This document shows positions 1-15,992 of a stretch of DNA of 16,896 bases, one piece after another. A model generated the notes under the pieces. That model made no database searches, was not told the origin of the DNA, and saw only the letters and a list, made by a program, of their open reading frames with translations. The position numbers were made by a program, and so were the translations under genes. This stretch comes from a virus. Taxonomy: Duplodnaviria > Heunggongvirae > Uroviricota > Caudoviricetes. The DNA lies in IMG/VR virus record IMGVR_UViG_2609459854_000004, positions 1-16,896 of that record. One strand, 5' to 3'. Every line of letters begins with the position of its first letter. Position 1 is the first letter of the stretch.

Positions 1-534
1 CTACGGGCGCAACGGGCATATGACGGTCTGAGTGTTGCTGGCCCGTCAGGTGCATACGAGTATTTTGCACGCAGCGCCAGCGGTCTGGTACGCGATGCGC
101 GGGCCATCAGCCCGTCTCCGGCCAACGTGACGGTTTCCATCCTGTCCACTGAGGGCGACGGCACAGCAACGGAGGTGTTGCTTAATACCGTTCGCGCCGT
201 TCTGAATGCAGAGGATACCCGCCCGGTGGCCGACCGCCTGACCGTACAGAGTGCCAGAATCGTGACATGGCGGCTGAATGCAAAACTGTACTTTTACCCC
301 GGCCCGGAATCCGAACCTATTCTGGCCGCGGCGGAATCGTCGTTCAGGAAGTGGCTGTCTGAGCAGGGGCTTATCGGTCAGGACGTGGCGTTGTCAGCCA
401 TTGCTGCCGCATTGCATGTGCACGGTGTGCAACGCGTGGAGATAATCGAACCCACACAAAATATGGCCATCAGCGACATACAGGCGGCGCGCTGTGAGTC
501 ATTCACCATCAGCGAAGGTGGGCGTAATGAGTAA
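1..534 (+). CDS. J: Baseplate assembly protein J (P2 gpJ-like), 5'-truncated by the window edge
   Basis: Frame 1 is open from base 1 to TAA at 532-534. Translation (…YDGLSVAGPSGAYEYFARSASGLVRDARAISPSP…DRLTV…YPGPESEP…GVQRVEI) matches what I recall of the P2 gpJ C-terminal half. Stop overlaps the next gene's start (ATGAGTAA). Confidence 0.85.
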   Translation, partial: LRAQRAYDGLSVAGPSGAYEYFARSASGLVRDARAISPSPANVTVSILSTEGDGTATEVLLNTVRAVLNAEDTRPVADRLTVQSARIVTWRLNAKLYFYPGPESEPILAAAESSFRKWLSEQGLIGQDVALSAIAAALHVHGVQRVEIIEPTQNMAISDIQAARCESFTISEGGRNE

Positions 535-1057
535 TTCACTGTTACCGCCATCAGCCAGCAATTTCATGCGTTGTGCCGAAGCTGTCGGAACGCGCATTAC
601 AGACATTCCGGTAGACCTCAACACGCTGTGGTCGCCGGACACCTGCCCGGTGCATCTGCTGCCTTATCTCGCCTGGGCATTTTCCGTTGACCGCTGGGAT
701 CGCAACTGGCAGGAAGAGACAAAGCGACAGGTGATTCGTGATGCATGGCTGATACACCGACACAAAGGGACCATCAGCGCACTGCGCCGGGCCATTGAGC
801 CGCTGGGATACCTCATTCGTGTGTCTGAGTGGTGGGAGTTCGGCGGAGAACCGGGAACATTTACCGTTGAAGTCGGCACGCTGGACAGTGGCGTGACGGA
901 GGAAATGTATCTGGAAATGGAGCGGTTGATTGCTGATGCCCGCCCGGTCAGCCGCCACATGACAGGGCTGAATATCATTCAGGAGATCCCGGGGGATATT
1001 TTCGCGGCGGCAGCAACTTACGACGGTGAAGTCATTACCATTTATCCGGACGATTAA
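527..1057 (+). CDS. I: Baseplate/tail protein I (P2 gpI-like)
   Basis: ATG at 527 overlaps J stop. Motifs [25 protein letters not shown]…VIRDAW…[17 protein letters not shown]…[15 protein letters not shown]…[10 protein letters not shown] resemble P2 gpI. The ORF-track start at 494 is an in-frame upstream extension I consider less likely. Confidence 0.85.
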
Positions 1058-1059
1058 GC

Positions 1060-2754
1060 ATGAGTACCACAACACGAAAATTTAAAACCATTATCACTGA
1101 TACTGGTGCCAAAAAATTAGCTCAGGCAGCCGCGCCAGATGGTAATCCTGTCCGCCTGACTCACATGGCCGTGGGCGACGGTGGCGGCACGTTGCCCACA
1201 CCAGACAGTAAGCAGACCCGTCTGGTGCATGAGGTGTGGCGACATACTGTTAATCGCGTCATCCTGGACGCAACACATCAGAACCGCATTATTGCGGAGC
1301 TGGTTATTCCTCCTGAAACGGGCGGATTCTGGATCCGGGAAATTGGTGTATTTGATGAGCACGGCGATTTAATCGCGGTGGGCAATACTGCCGAAAGTTA
1401 CAAACCAACCGTTGCCGAGGGGTCCGGACGTGCACAAACATTTCGCACCATTCTGACCGTATCCAGCACTGCCACCGTGGCGCTTACCGTGGATAACACC
1501 ATGGTGATGGCCACAGTGGATTACGTGAATGACAAACTGAAAGAACATGAACAGTCACGACGTCACCCGGACGCCTCGCTGACCGCAAAAGGCTTTGTTC
1601 AACTCAGTAGCGCCACTAACAGCACGTCTGAAGCACTGGCCGCAACGCCGAAAGCGGTCAAGACAGCCTATGACCTTGCTAACGGGAAATATACCGCACA
1701 GGACGCCACGACGGCACGAAAAGGAATAGTCCAGCTCAGTAGCGTCACTAACAGTGATTCTGAAACGCTTGCCGCGACTCCGAAAGCGGTGAAAGCCGCT
1801 AATGACAATGCAAACGGGCGTGTGCCCTCTGGACGTAAGGTTAATGGCAAATCACTAGCCAATGATGTCAATGTTACATCGCAGGATATTTTTAACGACC
1901 AGAGTATTGAGATTGGTGCAAATCAGAATCTGGATAATTACAAAACACCGGGGCTGTACCATCAGCCATTGAATGCCAATACAAGCGCAGCGCTGAAATA
2001 CCCGGAGAATTTTGCGGGTACACTGGTTGTGCTTAAAAATGCCGGGATAACACAGATTTACTATGTGTATGACACATCCAGAAGCTATACCCGCAGCCAG
2101 TACTCAACGGGTGACTGGACACCATGGACGCCACAAGATTCATTTCCGGTAGGTGCGGCGATACCGTGGCCTTCTGATTCAGTGCCTACAGGCTATACCG
2201 TTATGCAGGGGCAGACTTTTGATAAAACAGTCTACCCCCTGCTTGCAGTCGCTTATCCGTCTGGTGTGATCCCTGATATGCGTGGCTGGACGATTAAGGG
2301 CAAACCCGCCAGTGGTCGGGCCGTATTATCTCAGGAACAGGACGGCATTAAATCACACTCCCACAGTGCCAGCGCGTCCAGTACGGACTTGGGGACAAAA
2401 ACCACATCATCATTTGACTACGGCACCAAGACGTCCAGTTCATTTAACCATGGCACTAAAACCACGAATAGCGCCGGGGATCATTCACACAATATTCCTG
2501 TTGGCAACACTGGCGCTGGTAATGGTGTTTCGGCTGGTTATAACTCAGGGCTTGGCACTGGAAAAACAAGTAACGCAGGGGGGCACTCTCACACAGTAAA
2601 TATTGGCGCACACACTCATACGGTAGGAATTGGCGCACACACACACTCCGTTGCGATAGGTTCACACGGGCATACCATCACCGTTAACGCTACGGGTAAC
2701 GCAGAAAACACCGTAAAAAACATCGCATTTAACTATATTGTGAGGCTTGCATGA
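1060..2754 (+). CDS. H: Tail fibre protein (P2 gpH-like), with tandem fibre repeats and a His-rich HxH tip
   Basis: 564 aa ORF starting 2 nt after the I stop. The N-terminus resembles the conserved P2 H N-terminal domain. Two tandem repeats (…QLSS[A/V][14 protein letters not shown]…) and a C-terminal run of HxH motifs (DHSHN, GHSHT, AHTHT, AHTHS, SHGHT) are typical of phage distal fibre tips. Confidence 0.9.
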
Positions 2755-3653
2755 TTACGCTCATTCTTTCTGCACCAGTAACAGAAATGGCTGAAGCATT
2801 TAAGCAGGTATTTGCAAATGCAGATAGTGTGAATATTGTCGGAAAGCCATTTGAAACAATCAGAGAATTTGACTGCATGGTAAGTGCGGCAAATAGTTTC
2901 GGCTTGATGGATGGTGGCGTTGATGCCGCCATTACCGCATTCTTCGGTACTCAGTTACAGTCCCGCGTTCAGAATCATATTCTTCGTGAATATCTCGGCG
3001 AACAGCCTGTAGGTTCTGCATTTGTCATTGAAACGGGGCATAATCATCACCCCTGGCTGGTACATGCGCCAACAATGCGTGTTCCGTTGACAATTGACGG
3101 AACAGACGCTGTATATAACGCAACCTGGGCCGCTCTGCTTGCCATCTTTCAGCACAATAAAAACGCAACGACAGACATGAAAATAAAAACAGTGGTATTC
3201 CCTGCAATGGGGGCCGGATGTGGTCAGGTGCCGTTTGAAAGTGTTGCCCGACAGATGAAGCAGGCATGGGATAACTTTAATAAAAAAACAGAATCAATTA
3301 ACTGGGAATACGCACAATCTCGCCAGTCGGCAGTATTTGGCACATATGCATACTGTCCGGGTAATTCCGTTTGCCGTTATGCGGATACTAAATATATTGG
3401 ATGCGGCGATTATCGGACGTGTTGCTCTCGTTCCGGGCAACTCTGTATTAACCCTGAACATCAGGCTGATGATGTACTGATACAACATCAGGCTAATAAC
3501 CGTTTTCGCCCTGGTTCGCATATACACCGGATTAATCCAGAAAATCCCGTAGGTAATGTCACCTCTGGCGCACATAGCCACGGAAGTAGCATCGTTATTG
3601 GTACTCCTACCCATACGCTCAATAAACAATATTCTGTCTCTGATATTAAGTAG
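2751..3653 (+). CDS. Macro-domain-like protein with tail-fibre-tip-like (HxH) C-terminal region; function unknown
   Basis: ATG 2751 overlaps the H stop (ATGA) with GAGG 5 nt upstream. The N-terminal ~170 aa carry macro-domain-like motifs (…[18 protein letters not shown]… and …[14 protein letters not shown]…). The C-terminal ~100 aa are Cys-rich then HxH-containing (SHIHR, AHSHG, PTHT) like the H tip. Assignment is by motif only. Confidence 0.6.
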
Positions 3654-3661
3654 AGGTGAAC

Positions 3662-4240
3662 ATGGATTTCAGAATGAGTGAACAATCACGGACCATAAAA
3701 ATTTATAACCTGCTGGCCGGAACTAATGAATTTATTGGGGAAGGTGATGCATACATTCCACCTCATACAGGTCTGCCTGCAAACAGTACCGATATTGCAC
3801 CACCAGATATTCCGGCAGGCTTCGTGGCTGTTTTCAACAGTGATGAGGCATCGTGGCATCTCGTTGAAGACCATCGGGGTAAAACGGTTTATGACGTGGC
3901 ATCAGGGGACGCGTTATTTATTTCTGAACTCGGTCCGTTACCGGAAAATGTTACCTGGTTGTCGCCGGATGGAGAGTGTCAGAAGTGGAACGGCACATCC
4001 TGGGTGAAAGATGCAGAAGCAGAAAAACTGTTTCGGGTACGGGAGGCAGAAGAAACAAAAAACAGCCTGATGCAGGTAGCCAGTGAGCATATTGCGCCAC
4101 TTCAGGATGCCGTAGATTTGGATATTGCGACGGAGGAAGAGGCATCGTTACTGGCTGCATGGAAGACATATAGGGTATTGTTGAATCGTGTTGATACAAC
4201 AGTAGCAGCGGATGTTGAGTGGCCAGTCGCCCCGCAATAA
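3662..4240 (+). CDS. tfa: Tail fibre assembly protein (lambda Tfa-like chaperone)
   Basis: Translation from ATG 3662 ([54 protein letters not shown]…[33 protein letters not shown]…) is near-identical to lambda Tfa as I recall it. GAGG sits 5 nt upstream. The ORF track begins at an upstream in-frame GTG (3656). Confidence 0.9.
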
Positions 4241-4244
4241 AAAG

Positions 4245-4277
4245 AAAAAGCCATCGACAGAAATATCGATGGCTTTA
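4245..4277. terminator. Bidirectional rho-independent terminator-like hairpin between tfa and the acetyltransferase gene
   Basis: AAAAA-GCCATCGA-cagaaata-TCGATGGC-TTT: a perfect 8-bp stem flanked by an A-run on one side and T's on the other, sitting between two convergent genes. Confidence 0.55.
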
Positions 4278-4283
4278 TGTACT

Positions 4284-4856
4284 CTATTTATACAATACAA
4301 CACCACTCTTTTTAGTTATATATGTGCAGTTTGATGGTATATCTTTATTTATAAAAGACATTGCACCTATTTTTACATTATCCCCAATTTTACGTGACAA
4401 TCCAATGATGCAACAATTAGCTCCGATATCAACGTTACTACCAATTTTCACTCTTGAACCAGGCATGTCACCATCTATCTGTCCAATGGTAGTATTCTGT
4501 CGTAATACCAGATTTTCACCCGCATCAACAGCAAAATGAACAACAATTCCAGCATGATGGGGAATTGTTAACCCTTTTCCAATATTTGCTCCCAATCCTA
4601 TTTCACAACCAAATTTGTTAATTATTTTACTGTTTAACTTTTTGGCTGCTTTCTTATGTAATTTATTACCATTAATATACATTTCGTTAGCCAACCGCCA
4701 CCAGAAAAGGAAATTCCGGTTACGCTGCTTTTTCTCTCTTAAAAGCCTCCAGATATCCATACGTTTCCGCCGAATTACTTCATGTTTCCAGAAGTTTTTT
4801 AAATTAGTAGAGTTCCCAAATAAAACAAAGTGAATTGCCATTAAGTAAGACAGCAC
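4284..4856 (-). CDS. Hexapeptide-repeat acyl/acetyltransferase (serine acetyltransferase CysE / WcaB-like left-handed beta-helix); prophage cargo
   Basis: C-terminal half shows hexapeptide repeats and a CysE-like core (…GCEIGLGANIGKGLTIPHHAGIVVHFAVDAGENLVL…IGSNVDIGANCCIIG…IGDNVKIGAMSFINKDIPSN…). Preferred start is GTG at 4856 with AAGGAG 6 nt upstream; the ORF track extends to 4889. The region is strongly AT-rich compared with the flanking tail genes. Confidence 0.65.
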   Translation of the reverse strand: MLSYLMAIHFVLFGNSTNLKNFWKHEVIRRKRMDIWRLLREKKQRNRNFLFWWRLANEMYINGNKLHKKAAKKLNSKIINKFGCEIGLGANIGKGLTIPHHAGIVVHFAVDAGENLVLRQNTTIGQIDGDMPGSRVKIGSNVDIGANCCIIGLSRKIGDNVKIGAMSFINKDIPSNCTYITKKSGVVLYK

Positions 4857-4907
4857 GAAAATCTCCTTAATTATTATTTCAGACCACACATGTTATAAGG
4901 TTAAGAG

Positions 4908-4936
4908 ATTATAAAATCCTGTTATTTGTTATTCAA
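4908..4936 (-). promoter_or_regulatory. Candidate sigma70 promoter for the acetyltransferase gene (TTGAAT-17 bp-TATAAT on the - strand)
   Basis: Reverse complement of 4908-4913 is TATAAT; reverse complement of 4931-4936 is TTGAAT; 17-bp spacer; about 50 nt upstream of the proposed start. Sequence match only. Confidence 0.4.
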
Positions 4937-5012
4937 AAACAATTTTCTGAGAAGGACATACAACAGCAAGTCGCCAGTCACCTTCATCAGGAAATTGGCG
5001 ACATACGTTAAA

Positions 5013-5507
5013 TCAGAGCAGCCCCTTAACTGAGCTGGCCGCACTATTAAGGGATGATGTCACCTTATCTTTGAAGCCGGACAACATATCGCTGAACGAT
5101 GAGGATTGCAGGCGCTCCCGCAAATCCTCATCACAGCGTTCAAGAGTCAGTGAAAATTCTATCTTTTTCGCCTTACCGTAGCGATCAAACTCGGAACGGG
5201 TCGTATTCGTTCCGGTCAGGACATACATGCCGTAAATCTGCCCGACGCCATCAATCAGAGGCCAGGGTCGCCCTGTATACGCCTGCGTGGTCAGCAGCGA
5301 CAGCGACACTTCACCACCTGTAATTTCAGGATAAAGCACACCAGAAAGAACGATGCGATCATCACCTGCACCGATATACTGCCAGCTTGCTGAACGGTTA
5401 ACGCGTTCATTTTTCACATGCCGCCAGCTTTTGTTTTGCTGTAACTGCTGATGCGGCAACGTGCGCAGCTCAAAAACAAACATGCCGTAGATCATCATCA
5501 TGGCCAT
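5013..5507 (-). CDS. U: Tail protein U (P2 gpU-like)
   Basis: 164 aa; N-terminus M.MMIYGMFVFELRTLPHQQLQ…SWRH…GVLYPEITGG…PWPLIDGVGQIYGMYV…TRSEFDRYG resembles P2 gpU. Lies immediately downstream of T on the same strand. Confidence 0.85.
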   Translation of the reverse strand: MAMMMIYGMFVFELRTLPHQQLQQNKSWRHVKNERVNRSASWQYIGAGDDRIVLSGVLYPEITGGEVSLSLLTTQAYTGRPWPLIDGVGQIYGMYVLTGTNTTRSEFDRYGKAKKIEFSLTLERCDEDLRERLQSSSFSDMLSGFKDKVTSSLNSAASSVKGLL

Positions 5508-5513
5508 GACTCC

Positions 5514-8357
5514 TCAATCTTTATCGTAAAAACTGCCACGCCCGGCACGGGCGCGCCGTTCCATTTCTGCCCTGACCATTTCACCGACCAGTTTCGCCAG
5601 TTCGTGGGGATTCTGCGTAACAACGTTATGCAGATGAACATGAATTTCACCACCAAATCCGGAGGCAACAGGCTCCCGGTTACGGGAAGTTGCAGGCACT
5701 GATGCTACTGGTGATCGTATGGCCTCCGCCACCGGGCGGGTGCTGGCCGCAACAACAGGGACCAGCGCCGGAGGCAGCGGAGCCGGAACCACGGGGGTGA
5801 TATTAATTGCGGGGGCAGGCTTACTGACCTGCGCAATCTTCCGCTCCTGCCACTCCCCACGAACAGCAAGTGCGCGGGGCAGGTTCTTAAAGACAATATC
5901 GCCGGGGCCAATGCGTTTTTTCGTCTCATCAACCAGCTTACCTGTGTTATCAGCAATTTTGCTTAGTCTGCGCAGCGTACCGGTATTGCTGTCTGTGAGC
6001 GGTTTGTTGTCTTTGGGTTTATCACCTCCGGTGCCATTGCCATTTTCCACAGGCTTCGGCGGATTGATTTTCGCCAGGTCCCCCTGAAGCAAGGCAACCT
6101 TGTCCTGAAGAATGGCAGCACGCTGTGCGTCTTCGATTTTCTTGCGCGCCCTTTCCGCTTCATCCGGAAGCACACCGAGCTTTTCAAGTATCCACGCCAG
6201 CGTATCCAGCAACATTTTTGCAGGTGTCAGAACAAGTTGTAACGCACCGCCAAGAACGTTACCGAATATCTCGCCAGCACTGGTACATTTATCCAGCGTT
6301 TCCTTGCTGGACTCCATCGGTGACAGCAGCGATTTAAACCAGTTAAACACCTGGCTGATCCCACTCCCGATTGCGTCAAAAACAGGACCAAACCGTTCAA
6401 AGGTTTCGCGCAACGGGGTCAGCCTTTCCATAATCCCGCTGAACACCCCGGCAAAAAATGCCCTGATGGGATCCCAGTATTTCCAGATAAGAACGGCAGC
6501 TCCGGCAAGCGCAGCCACGATAAGACCAACCGGACTGAACAACGCCCCGATAGCGCCTCCCAGTAAAGAAACGGAACCCGTCACCATTCCCCATAGTGCT
6601 GGCAGAACCCTGACAGCATTCATTGATCCGGTCAGGAGGGAAAAACCAAGACGCAGTTTTGCCAGCGGGCCAGCAAGCACACCAATAGCCAGCGACAACG
6701 AGCCAACCGTTGCAGTCATTGCCAGCAGTGCACTGCCTGCAATCAGTAGCTGGCGCGTCAGTGCGGGATGGGCCTGCGCCAGCGCCGTCACCTTTGATAC
6801 CACACGCGTGAGCCACTGCGTGACAGAACGCAGCGGACCGTCAATCAGATCTGCAATGCGGATGCGCAACCCTTCCCATGCACTGCTGAGTGATTTCAGA
6901 TCGCCGTCAAGGTTGTTGGCCATAACCTTTGCCGTGCGTTCAGCCTCACCGCGCGCGCCTTCAAGTTCTTTTCTCAGTTTGGGTAAGGAGCCGTCACCTG
7001 CCGCATCAACGAGGGCCATAAATGATGTGAAAGCCTCTTCTCCGGCAATGTCCTCAAAGAACGATACCCGGTCAACTTCCCCGTATTTGCGGGTAGCTTT
7101 ATAAAGGTCAGCCAGCACATCCTCCATCGGGCGCATTTTGCCCCCGGCATCCGAGACAGACACGCCAAGCTCTTTCAGCGCCTCTGCTGCCGCCTTTGGC
7201 GGTGATGCCAGACGAGCCAGGCTGGCACGCATTGCCGTCCCGGCATCACTCCCTCTGATACCCATATTCGCCAGCACGCCCGCCATCGCTGCGGCCTGCT
7301 CCAGCGATATTCCCAGCTTACCCGCCACCGGACCTGCATATTTCATGGTTTCGCCCAGCGCGCGAAGGTCAGTGTTAGTACGGGTAAACGCTGCTGTAAG
7401 CGTGTCACCGACCCGGTCCATCTGGTCAGCGGAGAGGCCGAACTGCGTCAGGATATTTGAGCCAATATCCGCCGTCTCGCCAAGGTCCATACCGCCAGCC
7501 GTTGCCATGCTCAGCACGCCCGGAAGCGCAGCCTGAATGGCCTGCGGTGTGAAGCCAGCCATTGCAAGAAATGCCTGCCCACTGGCGGCATCGCCTGCGG
7601 TGAACTGCGTTTCAGAGCCAAGTTTTAACGCCTGCTCACGCAGCGCCTTAAACTGCGGGCTGTTTTTGTCGATTCGCGTCAGTGCCTGAACGCGGGACAT
7701 CTCTTTCCCGAACCCGATCGCAGGCTGCAAAAAACGCCCGACAGCATAGCCGCCCGCCGCTGCCGCACCAATTGCCAGCGCACCACCTGTTTTCAGTTTT
7801 CCCGCTGTTTCCTGCGCGCTCGAATACCGCTCACGCGCCCGCGTTACACGCGCAAGCGCCTGCCGTTCGCGTTCAAGCTGGTTGTTGTATTGTTCGGTGC
7901 GTCTGATGGCCTGCTGGATGGTGTTATCGCTGCCTGTCAGGGAAATGCCGTGGCGTTTCAGCTCTCCGCCAAGCTCCCGCATTTTCTGAATTTCCCGTGC
8001 GCGCGATTCATTCAGGCGTTCAAGCCGGGTGCTTAACTGCTGCATCAGCTTTTGTTGTTTTTCGCTGAGCACTGTACCCGTGCGTTGTAACTGATTAAGG
8101 GCGTTAAGCTGGCGTCGTGCTTTCAATATGCCAGCATCCGCTTTACTGACAGCGTCACGGGCGCGCTCAAATGATCGCGCCTGACGCTCGAGATTTTTGA
8201 TCGCCCCCTGCGTTCGCTGGATGGAGTCACCAAACTGCCCCATCAGGCGGCGGGCGTTTTCGGCAGGACGGGTCAGCCTGTCAACGGCGCTGAAAGCGAC
8301 CCGGATATCAAGAGTCTTCATTGTCTGCATTCCCGCTGCGAAGTGCCGCCCGCTCAC
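5514..8357 (-). CDS. T: Tail tape measure protein (P2 gpT-like)
   Basis: Approximately 940-aa ORF in the conserved position after the E/E' chaperone. Coiled-coil-rich N-terminus, central Ala/Gly-rich hydrophobic segments, Pro-rich C-terminus. Start uncertain: GTG at 8357 or ATG at 8330 or 8321; it overlaps the E' reading frame as in P2. Confidence 0.85.
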   Translation of the reverse strand: MSGRHFAAGMQTMKTLDIRVAFSAVDRLTRPAENARRLMGQFGDSIQRTQGAIKNLERQARSFERARDAVSKADAGILKARRQLNALNQLQRTGTVLSEKQQKLMQQLSTRLERLNESRAREIQKMRELGGELKRHGISLTGSDNTIQQAIRRTEQYNNQLERERQALARVTRARERYSSAQETAGKLKTGGALAIGAAAAGGYAVGRFLQPAIGFGKEMSRVQALTRIDKNSPQFKALREQALKLGSETQFTAGDAASGQAFLAMAGFTPQAIQAALPGVLSMATAGGMDLGETADIGSNILTQFGLSADQMDRVGDTLTAAFTRTNTDLRALGETMKYAGPVAGKLGISLEQAAAMAGVLANMGIRGSDAGTAMRASLARLASPPKAAAEALKELGVSVSDAGGKMRPMEDVLADLYKATRKYGEVDRVSFFEDIAGEEAFTSFMALVDAAGDGSLPKLRKELEGARGEAERTAKVMANNLDGDLKSLSSAWEGLRIRIADLIDGPLRSVTQWLTRVVSKVTALAQAHPALTRQLLIAGSALLAMTATVGSLSLAIGVLAGPLAKLRLGFSLLTGSMNAVRVLPALWGMVTGSVSLLGGAIGALFSPVGLIVAALAGAAVLIWKYWDPIRAFFAGVFSGIMERLTPLRETFERFGPVFDAIGSGISQVFNWFKSLLSPMESSKETLDKCTSAGEIFGNVLGGALQLVLTPAKMLLDTLAWILEKLGVLPDEAERARKKIEDAQRAAILQDKVALLQGDLAKINPPKPVENGNGTGGDKPKDNKPLTDSNTGTLRRLSKIADNTGKLVDETKKRIGPGDIVFKNLPRALAVRGEWQERKIAQVSKPAPAINITPVVPAPLPPALVPVVAASTRPVAEAIRSPVASVPATSRNREPVASGFGGEIHVHLHNVVTQNPHELAKLVGEMVRAEMERRARAGRGSFYDKD

Positions 8358-8837
8358 GCCAGCTAACCACTTCGCCGGGCGTCATCATGAAGATTTCGGC
8401 GGGCGACCAGTTAAAAATGGCGGCAATATCCGCCACAAAGTCTTCTATGTGCTCAAAGCACACAACCGTGATCAGGCTTCCGTCGCCTGTTCGTTCTTCC
8501 CGCCAGAGTCCGCACCGCTCAAAAAATTTACGGCAACCACACATAACTGAATAAAGTCACGGGATGCCATTTTTTTGATCGTCACTTCATCCAGTCGCGG
8601 TGATGTCACGCGTGACAGCAGCGTAAACATGGATTCCGCTTTCAAATTCAGCACATCAGACAGCGACAAATCTCGCAGAGATCCAGCCTGCTCAATAGCC
8701 CCGGTGATCTCCACATACGTGATTTTTTCGCCGCCTCGCTCAATTGGTTGGGTAAGTTTTACGCCACGCTCACTGGTTTCTTTCACAGTGTCAGTAACTA
8801 CCGTGTTTTCGGTATCGATGTTTTTCGTCTCTTTCAT
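8308..8837 (-). CDS. Tail assembly chaperone E+E' (-1 programmed frameshift fusion product)
   Basis: The -1 frame relative to E is open from just downstream of the slippery site to 8308 (…FFERCGLWREERTGDGSLITVV…). A shift at T_TTT_TTG joins the E N-terminus to this extension. The chaperone frameshift is conserved in P2 and other long-tailed phages. Confidence 0.6.
8472..8837 (-). CDS. E: Tail assembly chaperone E (P2 gpE-like), unshifted product
   Basis: 121-aa acidic ORF between the tube gene and T, carrying a canonical slippery heptamer in frame. Confidence 0.8.
   Translation of the reverse strand: MKETKNIDTENTVVTDTVKETSERGVKLTQPIERGGEKITYVEITGAIEQAGSLRDLSLSDVLNLKAESMFTLLSRVTSPRLDEVTIKKMASRDFIQLCVVAVNFLSGADSGGKNEQATEA
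8520..8526 (-). other. Programmed -1 ribosomal frameshift site, slippery heptamer T_TTT_TTG (E/E')
   Basis: On the - strand the E-frame codons read aaT|TTT|TTG, a canonical X_XXY_YYZ heptamer in the correct phase. The -1 frame downstream is open for about 70 codons. Confidence 0.65.
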
Positions 8838-8891
8838 CAGGGAACTCCTTTCAGTCAGGGGCGACGCACTGCGCCGCCTGCATATTACTTA

Positions 8892-9404
8892 TCAGCCAAG
8901 CCCGAGCGCGGAACGGATGCGATCGGGCACAATGTCCTTGCCGTCCTTCCGGTAAATGAAGTTCAGCAGGTCAATCTCCCACAACGGGCGATCGTTAACG
9001 CTCAGCTTGTAGTAGGTGTTTTTAATGGCGTAAGTGTGTGATGTGGCTTCGCCCTGTTTGGCTTCCCCCATATCAATTTCCGTCACGCGTCCGCGCATTT
9101 CGACTTCATACAGGTCGCTTTCTGCATCGGTGTAGTATTCACCCGCAAAACGCAGCAGCGTGCCGTCAATCGTGCCGCCATACTTAAGGAACAGCTCACG
9201 AACTGCGCCCCCCATGACAAAGCTCGCATCAAGCGCGGAGTCGTCCAGACCGAGATCAATACTTACCGCCCCCATCATGCCACCACCCCGGTAGCTGTCG
9301 GTTTTGCGCGTCAGCTTAGGCAGAGTGACGGACGTCACCTTACCCACTTCGTTTTCACCATCCACAAACAGCGTAAAAAAGCGAAGATGTTTTGGCACAG
9401 CCAT
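8892..9404 (-). CDS. FII: Tail tube protein (P2 gpFII-like)
   Basis: 170-aa ORF; its start overlaps the FI stop (TGATG). Size and position match P2 FII. Confidence 0.85.
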   Translation of the reverse strand: MAVPKHLRFFTLFVDGENEVGKVTSVTLPKLTRKTDSYRGGGMMGAVSIDLGLDDSALDASFVMGGAVRELFLKYGGTIDGTLLRFAGEYYTDAESDLYEVEMRGRVTEIDMGEAKQGEATSHTYAIKNTYYKLSVNDRPLWEIDLLNFIYRKDGKDIVPDRIRSALGLG

Positions 9405-10588
9405 CAGGCACCTCCCAGCACCGCAAATGCGGGTTCAAAGTATTCATCAGTAAACGTCTGGTAAAGCTCCATGTCTTCCAGTGGCGGAACGGGCGTATAT
9501 TTGTAGCGAATACGCACACGCCCCTGACGTAAATCCGTGGTGCTGTTATCCACCACGTCATACCAGCACTCCGCGCCAATCAGCTTCCCGGCAGTAACCA
9601 GTGAATCCAGTTTTGCCCTGATGGCACTGATAACATCCTTCACGTTCGCGGGTGTTAATGGACTGTCGATGGTTTCAAACTGCGCTTCCGCAATTGAATC
9701 AGCCAGCACCTGTGCGGTTCGGGTATACACCTCAAAGATGTAGGCGTTCGTTTCCGGTGTGCGGTTGCCCCAGAAGCGGAACCCGTTGCGACGAATAATG
9801 GTCGTGATTTCTTTGTTGTTGAGGCTGTTGGCATCGCTGTCTTCGGCCTGCAACGACCAGAACACATGCCTCGACATCCCCAGCACATTTTTAACCGGAA
9901 CGTTGGACAGTGATTTGTGCCATCCCTGCTCATGGTCAATGTACGCACGAAGGCCGCACGCATAGGCAGGCGCGGGGAACGTTTCGTTTTTGCCACTTTT
10001 CGGGTTGTAGGCGATGAAGTCCGGCCATAAGAGCATCACCTCACGTTCGTTGAATTTCTGGCGGTAGGTAATCGCCTCAGCCATCGTGTTACAGCCGTGA
10101 CATGAGGCATACACAAACGCGCGCAGTTTACCTGCAATCACGCACAGGGATTTTGTTACAGCCTCCGTGTCCAGCTCCGGCGCGGCCAGAATACGCGGAC
10201 GGTATCCGATGCTTTCATCCTGCTCTGCAACAAGCAGCGCATACATCCCCGTATAGCTGCCGTCATCCTCAGAACCACCGATAACCAGTTGATCCTGCGT
10301 CTTTCCGTCTTCTTCTTTGTGTTCAGCCACGCGAACGACGATCACCTTTGTGCTCACCTGGTCTGCGATGGCCTTAAGCGCACGATAAAGCGTCCCCGTT
10401 GTCCCGCATTTTCCCAGCACGTCATTGACGCGGGTCAGCAGTGTGGGCTTGTTCAGCGGGAACAGCTTCGCGTCCGCATCATCCGCCGTTGCCACGATAC
10501 CGATAACGCTGGAATCAACATCGTTAATCGCTGTTACCAGGTCGGTATTTTCCGTAACACGGGCACCATGAAAACGAGTTTCACTCAT
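9404..10588 (-). CDS. FI: Contractile tail sheath protein (P2 gpFI-like)
   Basis: 394-aa ORF; motifs …ATADDADAKLFPLNKP…GTLYRALKAIADQ…LRAFVYASCHGC…LLWPDF…GWHKSLSNV…IRRNGFRFWGNRT…YTRTAQVLADS…YKYTPVPPLEDMEL resemble P2 FI. Confidence 0.9.
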   Translation of the reverse strand: MSETRFHGARVTENTDLVTAINDVDSSVIGIVATADDADAKLFPLNKPTLLTRVNDVLGKCGTTGTLYRALKAIADQVSTKVIVVRVAEHKEEDGKTQDQLVIGGSEDDGSYTGMYALLVAEQDESIGYRPRILAAPELDTEAVTKSLCVIAGKLRAFVYASCHGCNTMAEAITYRQKFNEREVMLLWPDFIAYNPKSGKNETFPAPAYACGLRAYIDHEQGWHKSLSNVPVKNVLGMSRHVFWSLQAEDSDANSLNNKEITTIIRRNGFRFWGNRTPETNAYIFEVYTRTAQVLADSIAEAQFETIDSPLTPANVKDVISAIRAKLDSLVTAGKLIGAECWYDVVDNSTTDLRQGRVRIRYKYTPVPPLEDMELYQTFTDEYFEPAFAVLGGA

Positions 10589-10745
10589 AGCTTCAGCCCC
10601 TTGTATCCGTTAAATGATTCGGCAACAATCATCACCCACCACGCGCGTAATCTCACCCCTGCGCCGTTCTCCCGATTCGGCGACAACAAAAAGCAGTAAC
10701 CCCTTCCGCACGCACATGCGACCATGCCGCACAGGGAGGGAACAG
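10589..10745. promoter_or_regulatory. Divergent FI/D intergenic region; candidate late (Ogr-type) promoter for the FI operon, with repeated GATTCGGCRACAA motif
   Basis: 157-bp non-coding gap between head-to-head FI and D. Contains two direct copies of GATTCGGC[A/G]ACAA (about 10615-10628 and 10674-10689), a dyad ATGATT-n7-AATCAT (10614-10632) and a palindrome CCGATTCGG. Function inferred only from position. Confidence 0.3.
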
Positions 10746-11855
10746 ATGACTGATACCACCATGCAATTGCTCAGTCAGGGCACAGACCCCGTGAAAATGC
10801 CGGATTTTGATATTCTCGCGGAGGGTAAAACGCTGTCCGGCGTGGCAGAGCGCCTGATGAACCTGTCACTGACCGACAACCGGGGATTTGAAGCAGACCA
10901 GCTCACCATCACGCTGGATGATGCGGATGGTCAGTTGCAGCTACCGCCACGGGGCGCGCGCCTGACGGTTCTCATTGGCTGGAAAGGAGAACCGCTGACA
11001 GAAAAAGGCACTTACATCGTTGATGAAATCGCTCACGAGGGACCGCCGGACAGACTGACTGTTTCAGCCAGAAGCGCAGATTTTCGGGATGAATTTAACG
11101 TTAAACGTGAGGTGTCATGGCATGATGTGACCGTTGAGCGTGTGGTATCCGCCATCGCTCATCGGTACGGCCTGAAACCGCAAATCAGCGAAATGCTGAT
11201 GGATATCGAAATCGACCACGCCGACCAGACCGAAGAAAGCGACATGTCCTTCCTTACGCGCATGGCGGAAATGCTGGGCGCAATCACCACAGTAAAAAGC
11301 GGTAATCTGTTATTCATCATGCCAGGCGGTGGCGTGAACGCACAGGGCCAGCCGTTGCCATCGTTCGCCATCACTCGCAGCAGTGGCGATCGCCATCAGT
11401 TCCGCATTGCTGACCGCGAAGCGTATACGGGGGTACGCGCTTACTGGCTTGATCTTAATTACGGGAAAAAGAAAAAAGTCAGCGTGAAACGCCGCAAACC
11501 GAAAAAAGAGAAAAGCAGCAGCCGTGAAGGTGACTATATGGAAGGTTCGGAAGGCAACGTGTTTGTGTTACGCAAAACTTATCAGAACGAACAGGCAGCA
11601 AGACGCGCAGCGGCGGCAAAGTGGCAGCAGCTACAACGCAGAGCCGCATCATTCTCCATCACACTGGCACGTGGACGCGCAGAACTCTACCCCGAAATGC
11701 ATGGCACGGTGACAGGCTTCAAAAGTGACATCGACAATCAGGACTGGATTATTGCAAAAGCCGAGCACACCATTGATAACAGCGGCTTTACCACGCAGCT
11801 TGAGCTTGAGGCAAAAATCCCAGAGTGGATAGCAGAAACAGAGCGAGCAACATAG
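10746..11855 (+). CDS. D: Tail protein D (P2 gpD-like, late-control gene D family)
   Basis: ATG at 10746 with AGGGAGGG upstream. Motifs …DQLTITLDDADGQLQLPPRGARLTV.IGWKGEPL…SARSADFRDEFN…REVSWHD…SDMSFLTRMAEM…AITRSSGDRHQFRIADREAYTGV…, plus a Lys-rich linker, resemble P2 gpD. Confidence 0.85.
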   Translation: MTDTTMQLLSQGTDPVKMPDFDILAEGKTLSGVAERLMNLSLTDNRGFEADQLTITLDDADGQLQLPPRGARLTVLIGWKGEPLTEKGTYIVDEIAHEGPPDRLTVSARSADFRDEFNVKREVSWHDVTVERVVSAIAHRYGLKPQISEMLMDIEIDHADQTEESDMSFLTRMAEMLGAITTVKSGNLLFIMPGGGVNAQGQPLPSFAITRSSGDRHQFRIADREAYTGVRAYWLDLNYGKKKKVSVKRRKPKKEKSSSREGDYMEGSEGNVFVLRKTYQNEQAARRAAAAKWQQLQRRAASFSITLARGRAELYPEMHGTVTGFKSDIDNQDWIIAKAEHTIDNSGFTTQLELEAKIPEWIAETERAT

Positions 11856-11932
11856 ATACATTAGTTCATGCATAAGCTGGCCAGCTTACTACAAAAAGCT
11901 AGAATAAATTTGGCAATCCGCACAAATTAACA

Positions 11933-11951
11933 GGAGGCAGCTCAGGCCTCC
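11933..11951. terminator. Hairpin between convergent D and thsB (GGAGGC-agctcag-GCCTCC)
   Basis: 6-bp stem with 7-nt loop directly downstream of the thsB stop and about 80 nt downstream of the D stop. No strong T-tract, so terminator function is tentative. Confidence 0.3.
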
Positions 11952-11960
11952 GTGGTTGAA

Positions 11961-12428
11961 TTATTGTTTAATGGCGTTTTCTATCCATGTCGCCAAATTG
12001 TTCTTGATATCGCTATAAGCGTCGTTAAAGTTAGGTTCATATACGAGTGGTTTAATTACTCGATCGCCTCGCTTAAATGTAAATTGGTCGAAAGGATTCG
12101 GTCCTTTTGTCCCATAGCCGTTACGAGGGCATTTCAGTCGATGAATATAAATACCCACCACAGCCTTACCCTCTTTCCAGGCTCTTTCGATCTCATACTT
12201 GACCCATGGGCGATTAGCCGTTTGACTCCCGATCAGTACTACTAAGCAGGATTTGCCATTTAAGCTCTGATTAATCCAATTCTTCACGCCCTGCTCAGTT
12301 CGTTTAATTTGTTCCCAAGTATTTGGGCTAACCGGTTCATCCCCCTCCAGCACTCCCATGTTACGAATCTGCTGTACCCGCATAACATCGTTATCAAAGT
12401 GAAAGCTGTAAAATACCTTACGTTTCAT
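11961..12428 (-). CDS. thsB: Thoeris ThsB-like TIR-domain protein (DUF1863-type TIR)
   Basis: 155 aa; MKRKVFYSFHFDNDV…LVVLIGSQTANRPWVKYEIERAW…KGPNPFDQF matches the ThsB/TIR-like signature (KxVFxSFHxxD…LIGSQT…W…YEI). Strong AGGAGG 6 nt upstream of the ATG; 2-bp gap to the thsA stop, so likely co-translated. AT-rich island. Confidence 0.7.
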   Translation of the reverse strand: MKRKVFYSFHFDNDVMRVQQIRNMGVLEGDEPVSPNTWEQIKRTEQGVKNWINQSLNGKSCLVVLIGSQTANRPWVKYEIERAWKEGKAVVGIYIHRLKCPRNGYGTKGPNPFDQFTFKRGDRVIKPLVYEPNFNDAYSDIKNNLATWIENAIKQ

Positions 12429-12430
12429 AT

Positions 12431-13876
12431 CTAACCTCCTAGTTTCTTTAAAATTTCTAAAACTTTCATTTCGATATTTGCCCGATTAGCAGAGAGATCT
12501 GCAAGCTGAGCAACTTCCTTTTCCAACCAAGGGTACCGGACAAAATGTTTACTTGGATCCGTCAGCATCTCGTCAGCTAGTTCCTTGGCCATATAACCAG
12601 TGACGCCAAGTGGAAGCACGACAACCCCTGTTTCCTGAGCAATTTGAAACTCCCTTCGGACCCCATCAGCATTAACGATTCGACCATCATGGAGTTTATT
12701 CCCAAAAAGGAATATAGCGATTCCAGAAAGACCAATCATACGCTGCCGATATTCGTCCCATAGCTCGCTCAGGGCTTTATCGTTTGATGAGTGTTGAGGG
12801 AATGGCCGCATGATAAGTTGCTCTTCTGAGTACTTATCAGGCTTAGAATAAATGGCTTCAAGAGCTCCGTTGATGACCGCACTACCAATACCCCATCCAA
12901 ACCCATTGACAACTCGATAGCCATTCTTCACCAAAGATGACGAAAGTATGTGTACAAAGTTTAGTGCTTCCTGTTTGTCCCAAGCGCCATACTCTTCTGC
13001 ACTACCAGATATAAATATGGTCTTCTTGAGGAAGCGACTCTCAATCTCTTTCAATATAAGTGGAATATCATCGTACTCGTTTACTAATACAGCCTGAATG
13101 CCAAAACGGAGCAAATCGCGAATATGATGTTCTTGCCTACGCTGCCTATACATAGCGCCAGCTTCATCTTCATTTCCTTGCGGCAGAGAGGGTTCCTTAC
13201 GAAGAAAGCAGTAGTGTCTACGACGATGCTTCTCCGGAACATGCAATCGGCTCAATATGTAATCAAGATTAGGATCAGTAAAACTGAAGCCAATAAATAA
13301 GAATGTCTTAGAAATCAAATCTCCACTCAATGCTGTAACAAACCCCTCATGGGTCTTGTAGTACTGCTCATACTGAGCTTTATAAAGTATGGCGTCACCT
13401 GGCGAGCTAACATCACCATGCATTTTGTAAACAACAGCATCTCGTTTAGGACGAGTGGAAATAAGATCATCGGTTCTGCGTTTAATATCTGCGACACGGT
13501 AGTTTTCTTTGAGACTATCTTCAATCAAAGTGTCATAGTTGGTTGTCCAATAAGTTCTAATGGGTAGTCTAGCAAGGATTTTATGGGCTTCGGAAGGTTC
13601 CGCTTGCTCCGAGAATTCCTCTAGGATTTTTCTAGCTAAACCAGTTGAGCTGTTGTTCTTGTTGACATGGTATTGTGCAACCGAAATTAAGTCGTGCTCT
13701 AGCTCAACAGAAAGGCCTAATTCTTCAGCAATTTCACGCAGCAGTTCACTCCAATTAACGAAGCCGCTGGTTCTAGATAGGCCCGCACCAGCAAAAACGG
13801 CGGCAACCCCTTCTTCGAGATCCTTCACATAAGTCCTGATAAAAGCTTCAACTTCAGCCGAAAACTGAACACTCAT
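12431..13876 (-). CDS. thsA: Thoeris ThsA-like protein, N-terminal SIR2 (NADase) domain plus C-terminal SLOG/STALD sensor domain
   Basis: SIR2 motifs AAVFAGAGLSRTSGF…, …RTYWTTNYDTLIE… (catalytic Asn) and …AVVYKMHGDV… (catalytic His), then …TFLFIGFSFTDPNLDYIL…. C-terminal SLOG-like motifs …IFISGSAEEYGAW…NGFGWGIGSAVINGALE…IFLFGN…. Preferred start is ATG 13876 (MSVQF…); the ORF track gives TTG at 13897. Confidence 0.7.
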   Translation of the reverse strand: MSVQFSAEVEAFIRTYVKDLEEGVAAVFAGAGLSRTSGFVNWSELLREIAEELGLSVELEHDLISVAQYHVNKNNSSTGLARKILEEFSEQAEPSEAHKILARLPIRTYWTTNYDTLIEDSLKENYRVADIKRRTDDLISTRPKRDAVVYKMHGDVSSPGDAILYKAQYEQYYKTHEGFVTALSGDLISKTFLFIGFSFTDPNLDYILSRLHVPEKHRRRHYCFLRKEPSLPQGNEDEAGAMYRQRRQEHHIRDLLRFGIQAVLVNEYDDIPLILKEIESRFLKKTIFISGSAEEYGAWDKQEALNFVHILSSSLVKNGYRVVNGFGWGIGSAVINGALEAIYSKPDKYSEEQLIMRPFPQHSSNDKALSELWDEYRQRMIGLSGIAIFLFGNKLHDGRIVNADGVRREFQIAQETGVVVLPLGVTGYMAKELADEMLTDPSKHFVRYPWLEKEVAQLADLSANRANIEMKVLEILKKLGG

Positions 13877-14289
13877 ATTTTTAGACAATCCGGTCAAAAG
13901 ATAGACATAAACTTCTTACCACAAACTAACCTTTGTAGTTCTATACACCGCTTTTACGCTGTGCTTTAGTATCCAAATGGATTCATTACTACTGGGGTCA
14001 GTACCTATTGAGTAAGTAGGTAGAAAGCCATTACTAGCTCCAATACTCGCTAAGTATATGAGGCAATTAGGTGGTATTTTCAAGTTCACCGAGCCTGATA
14101 CAGGGCCATAGGAATAAATAGTCACATTTTCGTAGCTCTTTTCCACTATTGGTAGTTAAATAATTACTTTCACTTTATCGCTCAAAGCGTACTCTCAGGT
14201 TTATTGCTTTTTAGTTACATAAACCGTCAGTTAGAGTTTGTACCTGTACAACCTAGAATAACGGTAGCAACACGTTTGGGGAGGTCGCA

Positions 14290-14550
14290 ATGTTCCGTTG
14301 TCCACTTTGTGGTGCATCTGCCCGTATCCGCACCAGTCGTCCGGAAAATGATTCAAACACTGTACGACAAAAGTATTACCAGTGTAATAACTTAGAATGC
14401 GGCGTATGCTTCTCAACACTGGAAGCTTTTCATAAGTTCACATCAAAACACACCTCCTGCGTTCACTCTTCAGGGGATATTCCGTGGCATGAGCTGCCAG
14501 CTTCACACAAGGGAAACAATCAGATGAGTTTGCCTTTACCTCAGAATTAA
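14290..14550 (+). CDS. ogr: Ogr/Delta-family zinc-finger late transcription activator
   Basis: MFRCPLCGASARIRTSR…YYQCNNLECGVCF: a C-x2-C…C-x4-C zinc finger with Ogr-like spacing; GGGGAGG upstream. At 86 aa it is longer than P2 Ogr by a C-terminal extension. Confidence 0.8.
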   Translation: MFRCPLCGASARIRTSRPENDSNTVRQKYYQCNNLECGVCFSTLEAFHKFTSKHTSCVHSSGDIPWHELPASHKGNNQMSLPLPQN

Positions 14551-14638
14551 CAAGCAGAATTGCCGGAGTAGCAAAAAAGCGATAGATTACGCGCGGGTGC
14601 CTTTCGGCTGATGGTCGGAGGGAATACCCGAAGGCCAG

Positions 14639-14875
14639 ATGTGGAAAGGCCCCGGAAAAACATCTCTGTTTAACCGAGGCCCTAACCGCATTACCTTGAC
14701 AAGTGAAAGGTTAGCGCCTCTCCGGAAAAGGAGCAAGTGCTATGTCGCAAAAATCGCTTACGGCCATCACGTTCTGCGTGACGGCAATCCTCATCATCTG
14801 GATGCTGCACGGTTCGCTGTGCGAAATACGGATGAGCTTCTGGGGAGCGGAGTTTGCGGCGTTCTTACAGTGTAA
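14639..14875 (+). CDS. mok: mok-like overlapping reading frame (modulator of killing) of a hok/sok-type locus
   Basis: 78-aa ORF in a different frame that almost completely overlaps the hok-like ORF and ends 7 nt before its stop. This is the arrangement characteristic of mok/hok. No independent sequence support. Confidence 0.35.
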   Translation: MWKGPGKTSLFNRGPNRITLTSERLAPLRKRSKCYVAKIAYGHHVLRDGNPHHLDAARFAVRNTDELLGSGVCGVLTV

Positions 14876-14882
14876 GCAGTAA
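14742..14882 (+). CDS. hok: Hok/Gef-family type I toxin (small membrane peptide)
   Basis: 46-aa ORF MSQKSLTAITFCVTAILIIWMLHGSLCEIRMSFWGAEFAAFLQCKQ: single TM helix followed by the Hok/Gef signature SLCEIR…E.AAF. Not in the supplied ORF track because it is under 60 aa. Confidence 0.7.
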   Translation: MSQKSLTAITFCVTAILIIWMLHGSLCEIRMSFWGAEFAAFLQCKQ

Positions 14883-14891
14883 GGAAACCGC

Positions 14892-14913
14892 GACGGGGGA
14901 GCAATCCCCCGTC
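14892..14913 (+). other. Strong stem-loop in hok mRNA 3' region (GACGGGGGA-gcaa-TCCCCCGTC)
   Basis: Perfect 9-bp GC-rich stem with 4-nt loop immediately after the hok stop, consistent with the folded 3' elements of hok-family mRNAs. Confidence 0.5.
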
Positions 14914-14968
14914 AATCGGTTGCCAAGGTAAGGTCGATAAGGCACCCTATCTCATAGAGATGAATAAC

Positions 14969-15005
14969 AAACCCGCAGCGTAAAAACTGCGGGGTTTCTT
15001 TTTGG
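14969..15005 (+). terminator. Rho-independent terminator of the hok transcript
   Basis: CCCGCAG-cgtaaaaa-CTGCGGG stem followed by GTTTCTTTTT. Confidence 0.6.
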
Positions 15006-15071
15006 AACTCTCACTAGCTAGTGTACCGTTAGCGGCACATAATGCTCGCACAACAAACCAGTTAAAAGAGA

Positions 15072-15353
15072 TTACTCAGCATTCTCCTGCTTCCATTGCC
15101 GGATCATTTCATCGGTAACATCACTCTCATAACATACCACGTCATACCCTCCAGTACGGCTATATGCACTGCGTCCACCACATCTACTACCATTCCTTGC
15201 ATGATTATAAGGACACGCACAATTGCCTGGATAAGATTCAATGGATTCTTTAATTATTTCTTTCTTGATCTGAGCATCTGACTTTCCTTTTGCTGCATAC
15301 CCACTAAAAGATACCAAACAAAGGCAGATTGCCATTAATAAACCACATCGCAT
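15072..15353 (-). CDS. Small secreted Cys-containing protein of unknown function (predicted signal peptide)
   Basis: From ATG 15353: MRCGLLMAICLCLVSFSGYAAKG… has a typical Sec signal peptide (AxA-like YAA cleavage motif), then a 70-aa mature region with 4 Cys (…GNCACPYNHARNGSRCGG…VVCY…). The ORF-track N-terminal extension to 15467 precedes the signal peptide and is less plausible. AT-rich islet. Confidence 0.4.
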   Translation of the reverse strand: MRCGLLMAICLCLVSFSGYAAKGKSDAQIKKEIIKESIESYPGNCACPYNHARNGSRCGGRSAYSRTGGYDVVCYESDVTDEMIRQWKQENAE

Positions 15354-15812: not shown

Positions 15813-15839
15813 AAAAAAAAAAAAAAAAAAAACCCCCCC
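15813..15839. repeat. Homopolymeric tract A20 C7 (T20-preceded-by-G7 on the tRNA strand)
   Basis: Directly visible run of 20 A followed by 7 C on the + strand, about 55 bp beyond the 3' end of tRNA-Leu. Confidence 0.9.
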
Positions 15840-15893
15840 GAAGGTGGTTTCACGACACTGCTTATTGCTTTGATTTTATTCTTATCTTTCCCA

Positions 15894-15980: not shown

Positions 15981-15992
15981 TCGGGAAGAAAG

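Follow-up and report, generated by a model that had tools for sequence, protein, structure and literature searches.

Phages are increasingly found to use macrodomain proteins to counter ADP-ribose-based immunity. The phage macrodomain proteins known as AdfM, which take the ADP-ribose of DarT2 off DNA (PMC13309987; 10.1101/2025.11.20.689424) and include the characterized PhiPA3 gp108 (PMC13309987), are DarG-like and unrelated to structural modules. Sensitivity to type II Thoeris is set by the alleles of the side tail fiber and its chaperone (10.64898/2026.06.04.730250). In phage lambda and in phage SPF_0923, the fiber gene is followed directly by the chaperone gene tfa through a TAATG overlap (...GCATAATGGCATTC...). 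Here we describe a locus in which a macrodomain gene lies between these two genes. It was found in a stretch of 16,896 nucleotides (the window) from a P2-like prophage of the Caudoviricetes (IMG/VR record IMGVR_UViG_2609459854_000004, positions 1 to 16,896). The open reading frame (ORF), at positions 2751..3653 on the + strand, has an ATG start and no internal stop, and it encodes 300 amino acids. An original prediction, made from the letters of the window, had singled it out as a macro-domain ORF with a C-terminus like that of a fiber tip.

The first 195 residues (2751..3335, +) are assigned to a macro domain of the MacroD/Poa1 type by Pfam, Foldseek and sequence motifs. The Pfam family PF01661 is matched by residues 44-169 over profile positions 1-118 of 118, with 67.9 bits (cut-off 22) and an E value of 9.7e-19. 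A weak match to Macro_2 (Poa1-like) is also present, and the ADP-ribose-binding models of NCBIfam are matched with scores under their equivalog cut-offs. An AlphaFold2 monomer model was produced from family alignments, and the predicted local distance difference test (pLDDT) values for the macro part are mostly 70-90. Foldseek finds 101 matches in the PDB at E ≤ 0.001, the best 50 of which are all macro-domain structures or engineered variants. The top match is yeast Poa1p/Ymx7 (PDB 1njr, E 6e-9, 213 columns), followed by TTHA0132 (2dx6, E 3.6e-6), macroH2A, MacroD2, OiMacroD and YmdB. The N-terminal macro domain of the original prediction is thus borne out in both profile and structure comparisons.

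Asn48, the G55-G56-V57-D58 segment and the glycine-rich loop G154-A-G-x-G158 are invariant in an alignment of 91 sequences. These motifs align with NSYG...GGFD of Poa1p and with NAAN...GGGVD of OiMacroD. Thr62 occupies the position of the catalytic-site His of MacroD. Judged from these motifs, the domain is complete and looks competent: the N/D motifs for ADP-ribose binding and catalysis are intact, and activity is predicted. The ratio of nonsynonymous to synonymous substitution rates (dN/dS) is 0.08-0.23 in the macro core, and across all three segments of the protein it lies between 0.08 and 0.30, which supports a real gene under selection.

Over their whole length, residues 1-195 share about 50% identity with stand-alone bacterial macro proteins, some 200 residues long, from Chloroflexota (for example Anaerolineae), Cyanobacteria (for example Acaryochloris marina), Acidobacteria, Planctomycetes and Bacteroidota. 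These proteins stop 10-25 residues past the conserved RQxxIRYGGD motif, and they likely represent the ancestral lineage of the phage macro domain. A Pfam scan of 66 immediate neighbors at 33 loci of the cellular homologs found no recurrent neighbor, and thus no clue to the substrate.

The ORF begins on the stop codon of H. The 3′ end of H reads ...CTT GCA TGA, and the macro ATG is in the -1 register, giving an ATGA overlap at 2751..2754 (+; GC-ATG-A). The translational coupling to H noted in the original prediction is therefore present in the window, and the same junction is common to all 57 related loci (described below). The 3′ end of H contains a Shine-Dalgarno-like GAGG, and the identical sequence lies in front of tfa in lambda. 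The stf-tfa junction of lambda and SPF_0923 (GCATAATGG) was compared with the H-macro junction; its counterpart in the window reads ...GCATGATTACG..., with the start of tfa 908 nucleotides further on. The ORF ends in a TAG stop codon (3651-3653, +), and a GAGGTGA Shine-Dalgarno sequence for tfa (3653..3659, +), recognized in the sequence and in the junction alignment with lambda, lies at the 3′ end of the insert. Because lambda and SPF_0923 have stf, TAATG and tfa where the window has stf, ATGA, the macro gene, a Shine-Dalgarno sequence and tfa, the macro gene is an exact insertion the size of one gene (2751-3661), placed after the stf stop and before the tfa start. By the same alignment, it has taken over the translational coupling held by tfa in lambda and has brought a new Shine-Dalgarno sequence for tfa.

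From the H tip to the macro ATG, the + strand has no promoter-like (sigma-70-like) site, and there is no terminator between the macro gene and tfa. A hairpin terminator-like site at 4247..4276 (strand not assigned) closes both the H-macro-tfa unit and a convergent acetyltransferase gene. Since the macro gene lacks its own promoter and is not separated from tfa by a terminator, its protein is predicted to be made together with H and Tfa from the late structural operon. A classical moron, a unit with its own promoter, gene and terminator, was rejected for this gene, which has only the ATGA coupling upstream and no terminator before tfa. A fusion of H and the macro protein by -1 frameshifting was also considered, as H contains an A_AAA_AAC heptamer (codons V-K-N). 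Such a fusion is impossible, because the -1 frame stays open for five codons and then meets a TAA, which lies six codons upstream of the macro ATG.

The gene belongs to a widespread family. Identical DNA (100% nucleotide identity) is found in E. coli H3, where the product is RefSeq WP_032197584.1, a 'macro domain-containing protein', and the protein matches PHROG 2613 ('unknown function') with an E value of 7e-146. In a large protein collection there are 1714 homologs at E ≤ 0.001, named either 'macro domain-containing protein' or 'phage tail protein', and they come from E. coli, E. albertii, E. fergusonii, Salmonella, Citrobacter, Enterobacter and Erwinia. Among 5426 complete E. coli genomes, 128 carry the macro gene, in 109 chromosomal and 22 plasmid places. 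The neighbors are the same in every context examined. These contexts are the P2-like myoviruses (the window, Chuche and SEN4/SEN5); the lambdoid Gifsy-1, whose copy STM2588.1n is already annotated with pfam01661 (record NC_010392.1); lambdoid E. coli prophages, behind stfR-type fibers; a P1-like plasmid of 97 kb; and an N15-like linear plasmid-prophage.

For a closer comparison, 57 loci were drawn from the phage and E. coli records examined and from IMG/VR and GTDB genomes. In all of them the upstream ORF ends in ...E(N/T)T(V/I)KNIA(F/Y)NY(I/L)VRLA, with its stop overlapped by the macro ATG, and a lambda-type Tfa is next wherever the locus reaches far enough. The macro ORF is intact in 53 of the 57, and four copies are truncated. 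Homologous prophages therefore share the H-ORF-tfa order, and an ORF interrupted or absent in close relatives, which had been raised as a sign of a recombination scar, is not what these loci contain. Window positions 2605-4226 are found at 88-94% identity in the lambdoid, P1-like and N15-like loci. This segment is the moving unit, and it contains the macro gene and tfa together with the ascending needle strand of H. Full-text literature searches found no paper on the macro family. Public annotation already records both the family and its position (NC_010392.1, RefSeq, PHROGs), and the Cys/HxH tail is undescribed. The arrangement had been called unfamiliar; it is in fact a recurrent and annotated triad (STM2588.1n, SEN4/SEN5, PHROG 2613, WP_032197584.1).

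The upstream gene encodes a P2 H-like tail fiber of 564 residues (1060..2754, +), with matches to Phage_tail_fib, Phage_fiber_2 and Collar in Pfam. Its last 164 residues (401-564) match the receptor-binding tip of T4 gp37 (PDB 2XGF) with an E value of 2e-53 and are aligned to the final residue, and the C-terminal motif of H also ends T4 gp37 and lambda Stf. H itself therefore has a complete tip of the T4 gp37/lambda Stf type. A segment of H at 2430..2604 (+) is not conserved, by blastn, among otherwise common cassettes, and it is likely the receptor-contact region of a variable head or tip. In comparisons with the lambdoid, P1-like and N15-like loci (L006, L007 and L008), blastn covers 2145-2429 and 2605-4226 of the window and leaves out 2430-2604. 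The H protein has 564 residues here and 608 in the otherwise 99.7% identical prophage of E. coli H3 (L005 3060-4886). The difference of 132 nucleotides falls after about 1818, in the internally repeated Phage_fiber_2 region.

The gene downstream of the macro ORF (3662..4240, +) encodes a lambda-type Tfa chaperone of 192 residues, as the original prediction had it; the protein matches PF02413 (Caudo_TAP) with an E value of 4e-40 and is 90% identical to lambda Tfa. The further suggestion that a Tfa next door implies a fiber C-terminus in the ORF did not hold up, as H has its own complete 2XGF-like tip and lambda Tfa serves Stf without a macro gene. Lambda-type tfa DNA is present in 4589 of the 5426 complete E. 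coli genomes (8821 places) and the macro gene in 128, and a sister prophage that occupies the same pgsA/tRNA site has a different H tip and tfa and no macro gene. For these reasons the macro gene is optional for fiber assembly and dispensable for the fiber system in general. The macro protein was also considered as a chaperone of the Tfa/gp38 kind and as a fiber protein of the gp37/Stf kind, and both were rejected. Only Macro and Macro_2 are matched in Pfam, and the true Tfa is the next gene; there is no fiber Pfam family and no 2XGF match, and the N-terminus is the macro domain itself.

The remaining part of the protein, residues 196-300, is rich in Cys and His. Residues 196-240 (3336..3470, +) are, from the alignments, a Cys-rich module and a putative metal-binding knuckle, with the pattern YCPx4Cx2Ax3YIGxGDYRTxCx2SGx2CIx3HQ. 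This module has six Cys residues, four of which (C202, C208, C225 and C232) are invariant from E. coli through Erwinia, and its dN/dS is 0.14-0.27. Residues 241-300 (3471..3653, +) are, from the sequence and the family alignment, a His-rich variable tail with fiber-like GxHxH repeats. It contains six His residues and two strict HxH motifs, HIH at 257-259 and HSH at 275-277. The third HxH is degenerate in the window allele, which has GTPTHT where most relatives have GAHTHT, and this allele also carries a Y224C change. The Cys-rich, HxH-bearing C-terminus of the original prediction is therefore present, with one of the HxH motifs degenerate. Tails in the family have 1-4 GxHxH units with in-frame indels of whole units, and the total protein length varies from 255 to 300 residues. 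In the Salmonella variants, the GxHxH units have the 9-residue spacing of gp37-type needle repeats (GAHTHTIDIGAHNH). Since the dN/dS of the tail is 0.30 at a dS of 0.56 (compared with Chuche), the tail is under purifying but relaxed selection.

The likeness of the tail to the repeats of H is at the level of motifs (BLASTP E 0.01). To that extent the proposed resemblance to the distal tip of H stands, and a match to the fiber family PF03335 is absent. The C-terminal 115 residues match no fiber Pfam family, PF03335 included, even at E ≤ 10, and the C-terminal module has no match in the PDB, 2XGF included. With the C-terminal 112-115 residues as query, tblastn against 50,697 phage records and phmmer against 1.84 billion representative proteins each found only family members and spurious repeat proteins. 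These searches indicate that the Cys/His tail is specific to the phage clade.

Two occurrences of the tail elsewhere may be described here. Izhakiella australiensis (L014-L016) has three copies of the macro gene in one genome, each after a fiber ORF ending in ...NYIVRLA and before Tfa; the tails are divergent in sequence and still Cys/His-rich (GCDCGCG..., GRHNH, GAHTH, GCHDH, GAHHH). In Salmonella phage SEN34 (L004 4001-4165) there is an orphan fragment with the Cys-rich module only, 58% identical over 55 residues. It partly overlaps an annotated 'hypothetical protein', adjoins an O-acetyltransferase and lies downstream of a different fiber/tfa pair. It is probably the remnant of a former cassette.

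We favor, tentatively and with slightly less than an even expectation of being right, a functional accessory ('passenger') gene of a mobile cassette, made up of a T4-gp37/lambda-Stf-type fiber tip and Tfa, with an ADP-ribose-directed cytoplasmic enzyme as its product. Late in the lytic cycle, the protein would bind or hydrolyze some derivative of ADP-ribose inside the infected cell; candidate substrates are an ADP-ribosylated protein or nucleic acid, or a second messenger derived from ADP-ribose. The most plausible effect would be to blunt an ADP-ribose-based host defense that responds to the synthesis of late structural proteins or acts while it is under way. The Cys/His tail may bind metal and oligomerize the protein, or may tether it to Tfa or to the needle assembly machinery, and the gene would spread by hitch-hiking in the most mobile module of the phage. 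The protein is neither the receptor-binding tip nor required for fiber assembly.

Several observations weigh against such an enzyme. The pLDDT is below 50 for most of residues 186-300, and the 91-sequence alignment gave no gain. In the full-text literature searches, biochemical, genetic or proteomic data for any family member were not found. Counter-defense factors are not usually expressed late, together with structural genes. GxHxH repeats are otherwise known from trimeric iron-binding fiber needles, which argues for a physical link to the fiber. Moreover, the AdfM precedent is not directly transferable, because the domain is not DarG/AdfM-like. Membership of the DarG/AdfM group was considered and is not supported, as the PADLOC DarG model gives 13.8 bits and an E value of 0.007 with no stretch passing alone. 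The T4-type tk.4 is a weak Foldseek match in BFVD (E 2.5e-3), and the tblastn match in PhiPA3 falls under gene 271, not gp108.

The needle-like repeats could instead mean that the protein is part of the virion. The GxHxH/Cys tail would then form, as in the gp37 needle, a short trimer stapled by metal; it would fold with the aid of Tfa and dock on the fiber, so that three macro domains are displayed as a binding or enzymatic head that acts at the cell surface. The invariant position of the gene, translationally coupled between fiber and chaperone genes in four phage lineages, is consistent with this arrangement, as are the 9-residue GxHxH spacing in the Salmonella variants and a hypervariable tail with in-frame indels of repeat units, as in receptor-binding regions. 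Some source records also call the protein a 'phage tail protein'; these names reflect position and are not backed by experiment. However, the protein lacks an N-terminal attachment domain, as the alignment of residues 1-195 with cytoplasmic macro proteins of cells runs over their full length, and the macro core is under strong purifying rather than diversifying selection (dN/dS about 0.1). In addition, the known macro ligands are intracellular, the tips of gp37, Stf and H work without the macro protein in almost all cassettes, and the tail has no significant match to 2XGF or PF03335. We consider a fiber accessory of this type unlikely. A related proposal, that the Cys/HxH tail mimics a gp37-type needle strand and docks the macro domain on the fiber tip or on Tfa, giving either a fiber-borne module or a defense-coupled enzyme, appears more doubtful still. 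If it is true, the protein would be an ADP-ribose-binding or hydrolyzing module on the fiber, and the first case of a macro domain at work on a virion. Alternatively, it would be an anti-signaling or de-ADP-ribosylating enzyme tied, genetically and physically, to the fiber and chaperone that are sensed by ADP-ribose/TIR defenses.

Another role in fiber production would be that of an assembly cofactor, in which the tail is a metallochaperone that loads Fe2+ or Zn2+ into the HxH sites of the needle and the macro domain is regulatory or a scaffold. The His/Cys tails of SlyD, HypB and UreE provide the model. The tail stays Cys/His-rich even where its sequence diverges, as in Izhakiella, and the gene is strictly linked to, and co-translated with, fibers whose needles carry HxH sites. 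On the other hand, the best-conserved part of the protein is a macro domain with intact catalytic motifs, which is superfluous for a metallochaperone; about 98% of the E. coli lambda-type stf-tfa cassettes are without the macro gene, and T4 and lambda build the same needle without it. This role is improbable. The original prediction had offered a moron fused in frame to a captured fiber 3′ end, and a recombination scar of this kind would be a captured cellular macro gene joined to the leftover end of a fiber gene, with a non-functional tail or a decaying ORF. The resemblance of the HxH motifs to the H needle (BLASTP E 0.01), the variable tail lengths (proteins of 255-300 residues), the four truncated copies among 57 and the loss of the third HxH in the window allele would all fit such an origin. 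The adjoining fiber gene is complete, however, and the boundaries of the insert are exact, with the stf stop on one side and the tfa ATG on the other. The four Cys residues are invariant from E. coli to Erwinia, the tail has a dN/dS of 0.30 at a dS of 0.56, and the C-terminal module is found in no fiber protein among the 1.84 billion representatives or the 50,697 phage records. A scar is accordingly very improbable, and the fusion is not supported.

The original prediction had also remarked on a Thoeris module in the same prophage and, as speculation, on a functional link to it. The module is real, a type I Thoeris with ThsB (TIR; 11961..12428, -) and ThsA (SIR2-STALD; 12431..13897, -). The macro protein could be imagined as its partner, binding or destroying the NAD-derived signal made by ThsB and so protecting the phage's own induction, and macro domains do bind ADP-ribose derivatives, as does the macro domain of type II Thoeris ThsA (10.64898/2026.06.04.730250). 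The two systems occur apart, however. A sister prophage (L009; also H18 and H19) has Thoeris and no macro gene, with ThsA and ThsB accessions in L009 that are identical, and the complete macro-bearing genomes of Chuche, SEN4, SEN5 and Gifsy-1 have no ThsA homolog. The macro gene moves with the fiber cassette into lambdoid, P1-like and N15-like elements. We give a partnership with the resident Thoeris almost no credence. The Thoeris pair is inserted between a gpD-like gene and ogr of the P2-like prophage, and in the near-identical region of E. coli H3 RefSeq lists a Hok/Gef family gene just past ogr.

The gene convergent to tfa (4284-4889, -) encodes an LbH/hexapeptide acetyltransferase (CysE/WcaB-like; PHROG 2154). 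With a G+C content of 34% and a promoter-like site of its own at 4936-4908, it fits the classical moron pattern, as far as these sequence features indicate, and it could be a lysogenic-conversion acetyltransferase. In the 530 E. coli genomes that have it, it mostly follows a lambda-type tfa directly and the macro gene is absent; only 25 genomes contain all three genes. Divergent acetyltransferases (36-40% identity) fill the same spot in other cassettes. A functional pair of macro protein and acetyltransferase (deacetylase/acetyltransferase) was rejected, as the acetyltransferase is linked to tfa and not to the macro gene.

The gpD-like ORF (10614-11855, +; 413 residues) matches Phage_GPD only over residues 135-390. 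For this region of H3, RefSeq has a shorter coding sequence of 267 residues ('VgrG/Pvc8 family') and a pseudogene fragment on the opposite strand, and because of these the 5′ part of the gene may be rearranged. The tail operon FI-FII-E/E′-T-U (5013-10588, -) is on the strand opposite to the V-W-J-I-H block and the gpD-like gene, an arrangement that differs from the gene order of P2. In SEN5, the tape-measure gene and an adjacent tail gene are likewise on the minus strand after tfa. The likely integration region is at 15894-16896, where the prophage adjoins pgsA and a cluster of tRNA-Leu(taa), tRNA-Cys and tRNA-Gly.

The strangeness of the locus is in part dissolved, as the arrangement is common and the fiber and its chaperone are explained without the macro gene. 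The question that remains is why an ADP-ribose-type enzyme with a needle-like, putative metal-binding tail is always placed between the fiber and chaperone genes. The family is abundant in medically relevant prophages, namely Gifsy-1 of Salmonella and P2-like and lambdoid prophages of enterohemorrhagic and sequence type 131 E. coli, and it is strictly wired, with its unique Cys/His tail, into the most often exchanged phage module, the fiber tip and its chaperone. If the protein is a counter-defense enzyme, host-range cassettes would come with built-in cargo for immune evasion, and if it is associated with the fiber it would be a new type of fiber accessory. A simple housekeeping-like passenger would be an ordinary finding.

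The macro domain has the same fold as the MacroD/Poa1 macro domains (1njr, 2dx6, OiMacroD 5l9k and YmdB), and it shares with them the N-x9-D spacing (SAAN48...GGVD58) and the Gly-rich loop at residues 154-158. The identity to these proteins is 19-28%, and the phage protein differs in Thr62, the extra Cys/His tail and the late-operon context. The stand-alone bacterial macro proteins are without the Cys/His tail and lie in unrelated, non-conserved chromosomal contexts. AdfM (PhiKZ gp104, PhiPA3 gp108 and T4 Tk.4) is also a phage-encoded macro domain and a precedent for counter-defense by ADP-ribose removal. It is DarG2-like, however, and has neither the Cys/His tail nor the fiber linkage.

Gifsy-1 STM2588.1n, PHROG 2613, SEN4/SEN5 gp19 and Chuche CDS0053 belong to the same family, with the same fiber-macro-tfa order and ATGA overlap, and the window protein is 68-88% identical to the phage copies (Gifsy-1, SEN4/SEN5 and Chuche). 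Nothing essential differs between them and the window allele, which has the 300-residue E. coli-type tail, the degenerate third HxH and Y224C. The gp38 adhesin of the T2/S16 type, which caps the fiber tip, is likewise a separate gene directly 3′ of a gp37-type fiber gene. In comparison, the macro protein has no PHROG or Pfam match to gp38, a chaperone-type Tfa is also present, and the H tip belongs to the T4 type, in which receptor binding is done by the tip itself. The genes on either side are precisely those of the T4 gp37 needle/lambda Stf and gp38/Tfa system, and the macro tail has GxHxH motifs like the iron-binding needle repeats. The macro ORF itself, however, is neither gp37-like nor Tfa/gp38-like, and it is an optional insert between the two.

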